IMG/VR virus record: IMGVR_UViG_2778261572_000009
Span: 1 to 6,930 of that record
Length of the DNA stretch: 6,930 nt
Strand: one strand, 5' to 3'
DNA from: a virus
Taxonomy: Duplodnaviria; Heunggongvirae; Uroviricota; Caudoviricetes
The number at the start of each line of letters is the position of its first letter. The first letter of the stretch is position 1. Both the position numbers and the translations under genes were made by a program. Positions 6,142-6,930 of the stretch are shown piece after piece. The notes below the pieces were generated by a model that did not search any database, was not told where the DNA came from, and saw only the letters and a program-made list of their open reading frames with translations.

Positions 6142-6888
6142 TTAAACGCTCGCTACATTATACCAGGTGCCATTTATATACTTTTGAACGGGTCTGTAAT
6201 AAACGCCCGCTATATTATCGGCAGAGTTGGACCCTGTATCCTGAACATTAATACCAGACAATACATGACCTGACGGGCACTGGAAATTCCATGTTTGCCA
6301 GTTGTTCACTCCATAATATTGCTGTGACCCAAGTCGAACATCTTTCACATATCTGGAATCAAAATTGCCATAGTTGCCAGGAATAACTTGCGAGCCACAA
6401 AGCCAGTTACCGTTATTATCCATGTACGCCTGACCATCGGTGCCATTGGCTGTCCTTGAGTTATTAATCATGTAGATGCCAAATTGCTTGTTCCCCAGTC
6501 CACCTATCATGAACTTGCGGTCAGCGTGATTCTGGCGAAGCAACGCCTGAGCGCTATCAGTGTTAACTATATTTTTCCCAAAGATAGCGTTGTTATCGCG
6601 CATCTGAATCCACATACCATTACTGCTGTTAATAGCAAAACGGTCTGAAAGCGTCTCCCCTGAAACATTAAGGCCACGCCCCATCGAAACAGCGCCAGTA
6701 GCGTTATTAATCCATAATGGCCTTAATCCGTTATAAGTCCCCATGTTGTCACCGGAGTTTGTCAACATGAAGTATGTATTTGAACCATCATTACGAATAA
6801 AGAATCCGTAATTACCATAAGCAATACGTAGGCCGTTTGCTGATTTTGATATGACTTCGCCATTTACAATGGCATTGCGTATTTTCAT
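6142..6888 (-). CDS. Tail fibre protein, C-terminal receptor-binding module (gpH-like distal part), encoded as a separate 248-aa ORF
   Basis: The translation contains motifs I associate with distal tail-fibre domains ([18 protein letters not shown]...[17 protein letters not shown]) and sits immediately upstream of the cognate assembly gene G. The first ATG (complement 6886-6888) is preceded 4 codons upstream by an in-frame TGA and has only a weak Shine-Dalgarno sequence. Confidence 0.7.
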
Positions 6889-6930
6889 GAAAGGAGATCA
6901 CTCAATAACTTCCATCGAGATCGGGTAATA
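6885..6930 (-). CDS. 3' end (14 codons, truncated by window edge) of an upstream ORF, probably the proximal part of the tail fibre gene, in a different frame
   Basis: The minus-strand frame offset by one from the 248-aa ORF is open from the window edge (...[14 protein letters not shown]) and ends with TGA at complement 6885-6887, overlapping the downstream ATG as ATGA. Too short to identify by sequence. Confidence 0.3.
   Translation of the reverse strand, partial: ITRSRWKLLSDLLS

Follow-up and report, generated by a model that had tools for sequence, protein, structure and literature searches.

A distal tail-fibre ORF of a decayed P2-like prophage begins inside the end of an ISEc12 insertion sequence

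Introduction

What looks like a self-contained gene for the distal part of a phage tail fibre lies at one end of the stretch of DNA analysed here (6930 bp in full; hereafter, the window), and its origin is the question that this locus raises. The ORF encodes 248 aa, spans 6888→6142 on the minus strand, and opens with an ATG (6888-6886) that is preceded four codons upstream by an in-frame TGA (6900-6898; TGA TCT CCT TTC ATG on the minus strand), just as an earlier sequence-only reading had described. From this arrangement, together with an adjacent frame that is open to the window edge and ends in a TGA overlapping the ATG, that reading had proposed either that the tail-fibre gene carries a frameshift, consistent with prophage decay, or that the distal module is translated as a separate, translationally coupled polypeptide. 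In both cases, the module and its chaperone G were held to form an intact, exchangeable cassette.

Through comparison with intact relatives, we conclude that the 248-aa ORF is almost certainly a 5′-truncated pseudogene fragment of the tail-fibre gene H, cut by the insertion sequence ISEc12, with its start codon lying inside the IS end. Given that the upstream 55 nt are ISEc12 sequence and that intact H is uninterrupted, the locus represents neither a frameshift nor a naturally split gene.

Results

Genomic context of the window

The window is the complete draft contig NLMV01000115.1 of assembly GCA_002229415.1. Its minus strand encodes, in order, pfkA, fieF, an Ogr/Delta zinc-finger protein, a 486-aa ORF, a 299-aa ORF, a 175-aa Caudo_TAP protein, and the 248-aa ORF; beside fieF/pfkA lies a P2-like prophage, whose ogr-proximal end is what the window covers. 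The features discussed below are collected in Table 1.

Table 1. Features of the tail-fibre end of the prophage and of the adjoining ISEc12 terminus (window coordinates)
Feature	Position	Strand	Remarks
Sheath::D fusion ORF, 486 aa	2718-4178, junction 3479/3480	(-)	WP_089653473.1
299-aa ORF	4498-5397	(-)	phrog_7195
Tail-fibre assembly chaperone gene G, 175 aa	5613..6140	(-)	PF02413 Caudo_TAP, E = 1e-34; phrog_136
H 3′ remnant	6142..6875	(-)	Last 2 bases of codon 430, codons 431-673 and stop; holds receptor-binding tip
Predicted left copy of target-site duplication, GGCAT, 5 bp	6871..6875	.	By comparison with flanks of other ISEc12 copies
ISEc12 left terminal inverted repeat (IRL), first 55 nt	6876..6930	(+)	55/55 identity
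"Adjacent open frame", 14 codons plus TGA overlapping the ATG	6885..6929	(-)	Antisense to non-coding ISEc12 left end
Fortuitous ATG of the 248-aa hybrid ORF	6886..6888	(-)	Inside ISEc12 IRL
In-frame TGA, 4 codons before the ATG	6898..6900	(-)	Inside ISEc12 IRL

The fibre tip and its chaperone

The distal 244 residues of the ORF share 99% identity with the C-terminus of Peduovirus P2 H, 84% with Mu S, and 82% with P1 S; the match to the Mu S fibre structure (PDB 5yvq) has E = 6e-130 and is near-identical over its first ~180 residues and divergent in the last ~60. The earlier assignment to the distal, receptor-binding part of a P2-type fibre is borne out by these matches, and the gene that follows is indeed that of chaperone G, as its PF02413 match indicates; its product (WP_000972099.1) is the same as in the intact prophage of strain SMS-3-5. 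The two genes are closely spaced, with the fibre stop TAA (6144-6142) followed by one base and then the ATG of G (6140), a TAA-N-ATG arrangement. The DNA of tip and G is identical to that of intact prophages. It is established that P2, P1, and other phages swap the C-terminal host-range region along with the matching chaperone, and phage engineering has made use of this, as in the P2-P1(S′) chimera supplied with U′, an example of a tip swap (PMC9942202). To that extent the notion of an intact, exchangeable cassette stands, but its 5′ limit in the window is an accident of the IS. Tip and G are an already known cassette of the P2/Mu/P1 type, which is general biology rather than a new finding.

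Comparison with intact H

We searched the window region 5400-6930 with megablast against complete E. coli genomes and recovered 207 genomes with a match covering at least 80% of this query. Many genomes are 100% identical over window 5400-6877, and every match stops at 6877. At this fieF/pfkA site, the P2-like prophage of strain SMS-3-5 is intact, with H as a single uninterrupted ORF of 673 aa, and the prophage of strain E4 carries the same 673-aa H, also uninterrupted. Residues 5-248 of the ORF are identical to residues 430-673 of the SMS-3-5 H; when aligned to H residues 428-673, 244 of 246 aa are identical, with ORF residues 1-4 lying outside the identical block. The ORF thus retains the back 36% of H.

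At the level of domain architecture, intact SMS-3-5 H comprises PF12571 (residues 1-151), PF03406 (170-210), and PF21446 (Gp34_trimer; 375-485), the last matched over profile positions 1-116. The sole Pfam match of the 248-aa ORF is a partial PF21446, covering positions 63-116 of the 116 in the profile, and the break after codon 431 falls in the middle of Gp34_trimer and not at a module boundary. Full-length H combines a PF12571 tail-collar/baseplate-attachment domain, the hallmark of the proximal end in fibres of this kind, with PF03406 repeats in an uninterrupted ORF of ~670 aa that ends right before G; the 248-aa ORF lacks both domains and is far shorter, retaining from this set of features the C-terminal receptor-binding region with the Caudo_TAP chaperone gene next to it. 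Relative to P2 H, the window fragment is without residues 1-429/430, which hold the collar/attachment domain of the N-terminus, the fibre repeats, and one half of Gp34_trimer, and it opens with four codons supplied by the IS.

The sequence upstream of the break is an ISEc12 terminus

What had been read as upstream fibre sequence in another frame is the terminus of ISEc12 (6876-6930) and not fibre. These nucleotides equal the first 55 nt of a 2581-bp ISEc12 copy in xylH of strain B379 (55/55), and an identical ISEc12 left end is present in a T6SS-cluster gene of GPEC464. Matches to the window tail occur in 2753 E. coli genomes, where they lie within many unrelated genes, including xylH, T6SS, rhsD, traD, kgtP, and Ag43. 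In the two copies that we examined, the matching tail lies directly upstream of istA/istB and is annotated as "IS21-like element ISEc12". The B379 and GPEC464 copies have the termini TGCGTATT…AATACGCA, with the limits TGCGTA...TACGCA, and are flanked by 5-bp duplications, AGTAT in B379 xylH (L002 4006-4010 and 6592-6596) and AGCAT in the GPEC464 T6SS-cluster gene (L003 6006-6010 and about 8593-8597). The window tail, likewise, is a terminal inverted repeat that begins with TG and is identical to these known copies. The istA/istB genes, known from the reference copies L002 and L003, would follow on the plus strand past the end of this contig. The target-site duplication is predicted to be GGCAT, with its left copy alone in view.

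At the break, intact SMS-3-5 H reads …ACAATGGCATTG|ACAAGAAC and the window …ACAATGGCATTG|CGTATTTTCATG; in a longer reading, intact H continues as …ACAATGGCATTG|ACAAGAACATAC… and the window as …ACAATGGCATTG|CGTATTTTCATGAAAGG…. The H remnant ends at 6875, and homology to H runs to 6877, since the TG at 6876-6877 is the IS terminus, which matches the next two bases of H by chance. A 30-mer across the left H/ISEc12 junction is CATTTACAATGGCATTGCGTATTTTCATGA. None of the complete E. coli genomes searched by megablast spans the H/ISEc12 junction, and an exact 30-mer for the right junction (GGTAATACGCA+GGCATTGACAAGAACATAC) had 0 matches in the GTDB representative genomes, a weak negative.

The three ISEc12 targets considered here are alike (AGTAT, AGCAT, and GGCAT; RGYAT, n = 3), although the 5-bp duplication ACTGC published for ISEc12 in tssM (PMC10711316) does not fit, and any preference is weak. 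Owing to the similar RGYAT targets, BLAST matches at unrelated insertion sites ran ~10 nt beyond the true IS end. This overrun past the break led us to consider a group II intron or a target-specific IS110-type element, both of which were rejected because the true IS start is the TG at 6876, this TG is shared by chance, and the targets are alike.

Short-read assemblers produce just such a contig end, 55 nt inside an IS present in many copies, when they meet a repeat; the length probably reflects an assembly-graph overlap of k = 55. It is for this reason that the upstream context is missing from the window.

The apparent start codon and the adjacent frame

The minus strand reads TATTACCCGATCTCGATGGAAGTTATTGAGTGATCTCCTTTCATGAAAATACGCAATGCC… from the window end. 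ISEc12 supplies codons 1-4 of the 248-aa ORF (MKIR) together with the opening base of codon 5, and the ATG, located at 11-13 nt within the ISEc12 terminal repeat, is by chance in frame with the H remnant, which is what causes a 248-aa "gene" to be called. In the +1 register, a TGA at 6887-6885 overlaps this ATG as ATGA, and the frame is stop-free from 6929 to 6888. The description of an adjacent frame open to the window edge is therefore literally true, but it comprises 14 codons of IS sequence, and about half of all random frames would be open for that length ((61/64)^14 ~0.5); at this chance level it offers no evidence for an upstream coding sequence. When ISEc12 is restored beyond the contig end, the frame extends to 30 codons, contains neither ATG nor GTG, and does not resemble H.

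The ATG of the hybrid ORF is without Shine-Dalgarno (SD) pairing: its pairing energy is -2.2 kcal/mol, where the window background is -2.7 ± 2.6 and pfkA, fieF, the 299-aa gene, and the sheath::D ORF have energies of -6 to -9 kcal/mol. Neither at the window end nor in the ISEc12 left end did consensus scans pick up a promoter-like site facing the ORF. From these scans and the SD energy, we infer that the H remnant is not expressed, although transcription may read through into it from within ISEc12 or beyond.

Exact copies of the 248-aa protein are limited to a single contig at NCBI and a single Logan contig. RefSeq holds this IS/H hybrid as WP_089653475.1, named "phage tail protein" like an ordinary protein. 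Its 90% cluster has 593 members, many of them fragments (180-599 aa among the members listed, several flagged partial), from which it follows that C-terminal fibre fragments arising from contig ends or disruptions are common in protein databases.

Decay of the prophage

Prophage decay, as the sequence-only reading had supposed, is real at this locus, although it took a form other than a frameshift in the fibre gene. Compared with SMS-3-5, 4842 bp are absent between gpD and the sheath gene (window 3479/3480, corresponding to L001 5238/10081), a deletion that removes the genes for the tube, E/E′, the tape-measure protein, and U, and fuses the N-terminal half of the sheath (FI) in frame to the C-terminal half of gpD as the 486-aa ORF. 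The fusion protein is unique to this contig, forming a protein cluster of one member, and the prophage is a defective remnant regardless of ISEc12.

Other prophages at the fieF/pfkA site are found in several independent states, in none of which the fibre tip, G, or the 299-aa gene has been lost. In WCHEC020031 (L007, NZ_CP033401.1, 7170-15394), H at the same site is cut to 333 aa beside a truncated V; this remnant is also without D and other tail genes, its portal gene is truncated, and many genomes in the search listing are similar to it. The SMS-3-5 prophage has an IS4 between fieF and ogr (L001 2792-4138). For the sheath/D region, the closest complete genome is E4 (L006, NZ_CP104516.1), whose prophage is a different one, located at trhP/yegP, with deletions of its own and an intact H.

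Several cargo genes accompany these prophages. The 299-aa ORF has a full-length match to phrog_7195 (unknown function) and no match in Pfam, PADLOC, or NCBIfam. Its SD pairing is strong (-9.3 kcal/mol), its exact sequence occurs on at least 1000 contigs, and annotations of the intact SMS-3-5 prophage and of the E4 and WCHEC020031 remnants list the same product (WP_000014361.1); a single-sequence AlphaFold2 model was unusable (pLDDT 34). Its position between G and the sheath gene is that of the P2 Z/fun cargo locus, and it is a candidate lysogenic-conversion or defence gene. In the E4 prophage (L006 2924-4160), HTH and reverse-transcriptase-family proteins are encoded right after the replication endonuclease gene, and the pair looks like retron-type cargo in a P2 variable region. 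In 3/3 P2-like prophages (L001 17274-18059 (+), L006 6606-7391, and L007 11805-12590), the baseplate V and virion morphogenesis genes are separated by a 261-aa hypothetical gene in the opposite orientation, a conserved cargo of unknown function.

Discussion

Origin of the hybrid ORF

ISEc12, a member of the IS21 family, is joined to H after codon 431 at the target GGCAT, so placed that its left end abuts distal H and its transposase genes would point away from it. With an IS-borne ATG in frame, ORF finders call a gene of 4 IS codons followed by 244 H codons, and the in-frame TGA and the short overlapping frame are IS sequence too. The resulting H remnant is most likely inert, as it has no ribosome-binding site, no detectable promoter, no N-terminal baseplate-attachment domain, and half a trimerisation domain, and the prophage has lost its tube and tape-measure genes.

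We take a simple insertion to be more probable than an IS-mediated deletion, even though a partial IS, an IS-mediated deletion, and an inversion are equally compatible with the 55 IS nucleotides in the window. It is possible, if somewhat unlikely, that a deletion or rearrangement mediated by the IS left the N-terminal 431 codons of H, and perhaps more of the prophage, gone or elsewhere, with ISEc12 as its end-point. The prophage already carries one large deletion, other strains show independent large deletions truncating H at the fieF/pfkA site, and the fragment predicted from an insertion (H1-431 followed by CVLP*) was not found by exact look-up of two sequence variants, a negative that is weak because the look-up was for exact sequences and pseudogenes often have no protein record. 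Set against this, the junction has the form expected for ordinary transposition into GGCAT.

Truncation at the IS could in principle have been put to use: the IS-borne ATG might yield an expressed hybrid, so that a free tip trimer with G, and perhaps the 299-aa gene, is selectively retained. It might act, for instance, as an LPS-binding decoy, an exclusion factor, or a recombination reservoir through which incoming P2-like phages alter their host range. A hint in this direction is that the independently decayed WCHEC020031 remnant also keeps tip, G, and the 299-aa gene; this co-retention is equally explained by nearness to the ogr end of the prophage, and we consider selected expression very improbable.

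The two explanations first advanced for the locus are both refuted. A small indel in a continuous H gene would suit the real decay of the prophage seen in the sheath::D deletion, but the 53-55 nt before the break do not align to H and are 100% identical to the ISEc12 terminus, H residues around 415-429 are not encoded in the translated upstream sequence, and intact H goes on as ACAAGAACATAC... where the window has CGTATTTTCATG..., so that alignment to intact P2-like H, the check proposed along with the frameshift, reveals no single-base indel that would restore one long ORF; we give this account next to no credence. An equally negligible chance attaches to a naturally separate, translationally coupled distal polypeptide, for which the ATGA overlap and the coupled type of the H-G junction downstream (TAA-N-ATG) might speak. 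In SMS-3-5 and E4 a single 673-aa ORF crosses the break, with 207 genomes matching at least 80% of the query; the upstream frame, which a split gene or programmed frameshift would have encoding fibre up to the overlap, consists of 30 non-coding IS codons with no ATG or GTG; the break is in mid-domain; the IS-derived ATG has no SD; and the exact protein is confined to the one NCBI and one Logan contig.

It is extremely unlikely that the locus is an invertible tail-fibre segment like Mu G, P1 C, or e14 P, in which case the break would mark a recombinase crossover site. In favour of it, identity of the tip to Mu S and P1 S is 82-84%, and in both of these the distal part is carried on an invertible segment. 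Against it, the break is the end of an IS21-family element that occurs within many unrelated genes with 5-bp duplications; among the window ORFs of either strand there is no second tip/chaperone pair in the opposite orientation; Pfam scans of five minus-strand ORFs returned no invertase; and the intact prophage at the same site has a plain P2-type H-G. The likeness to Mu S and P1 S had first led us to consider a Mu/P1 Sc/Sv crossover site, which was dropped once the break proved to be an IS end.

Implications

The truncation of H by ISEc12 carries a caution for annotation, in that an ORF with a clean start codon, a stop in frame ahead of it, and an ATGA overlap passed for a deliberately separate receptor-binding module at what is really an IS junction at a contig end. 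Since RefSeq carries the hybrid as a normal protein, chimeric starts created by IS elements can contaminate databases and analyses of fibre modularity. The locus also adds to the cases in which ISEc12 inactivates a gene and in which P2-like prophages at fieF/pfkA degrade step by step.

Comparison with known systems

The window shares with the intact SMS-3-5 prophage the P2 gene order (…I-H-G-[cargo]-FI…D-ogr) adjoining fieF/pfkA, and it shares with Mu S/U, P1 S/U, and P2 H/G the layout of a distal fibre followed by its chaperone. A cryptic P2 remnant at the fieF/pfkA site of K-12 was reportedly described by Barreiro and Haggård-Ljungquist in 1992. Cryptic P2 remnants at this site likewise consist of an ogr-proximal piece next to fieF, and the window differs from them by its unique FI::D fusion and its ISEc12 junction. 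The closest parallel to the junction itself is found in E. coli genes disrupted by ISEc12, such as tssM of ST131 clade C (PMC10711316), with the same 55-nt left end, TG...CA ends, a 5-bp target-site duplication, and a split coding gene. In disruptions of the tssM type, as in the window, the fragments are called as separate or partial genes by annotation pipelines; the window differs in that the target is a prophage tail-fibre gene and in that the left junction alone is visible, the contig ending within the IS. Disruption of a prophage tail-fibre gene by an IS, seen here where a draft contig ends, is thus nothing out of the ordinary and belongs to a class of events already known.
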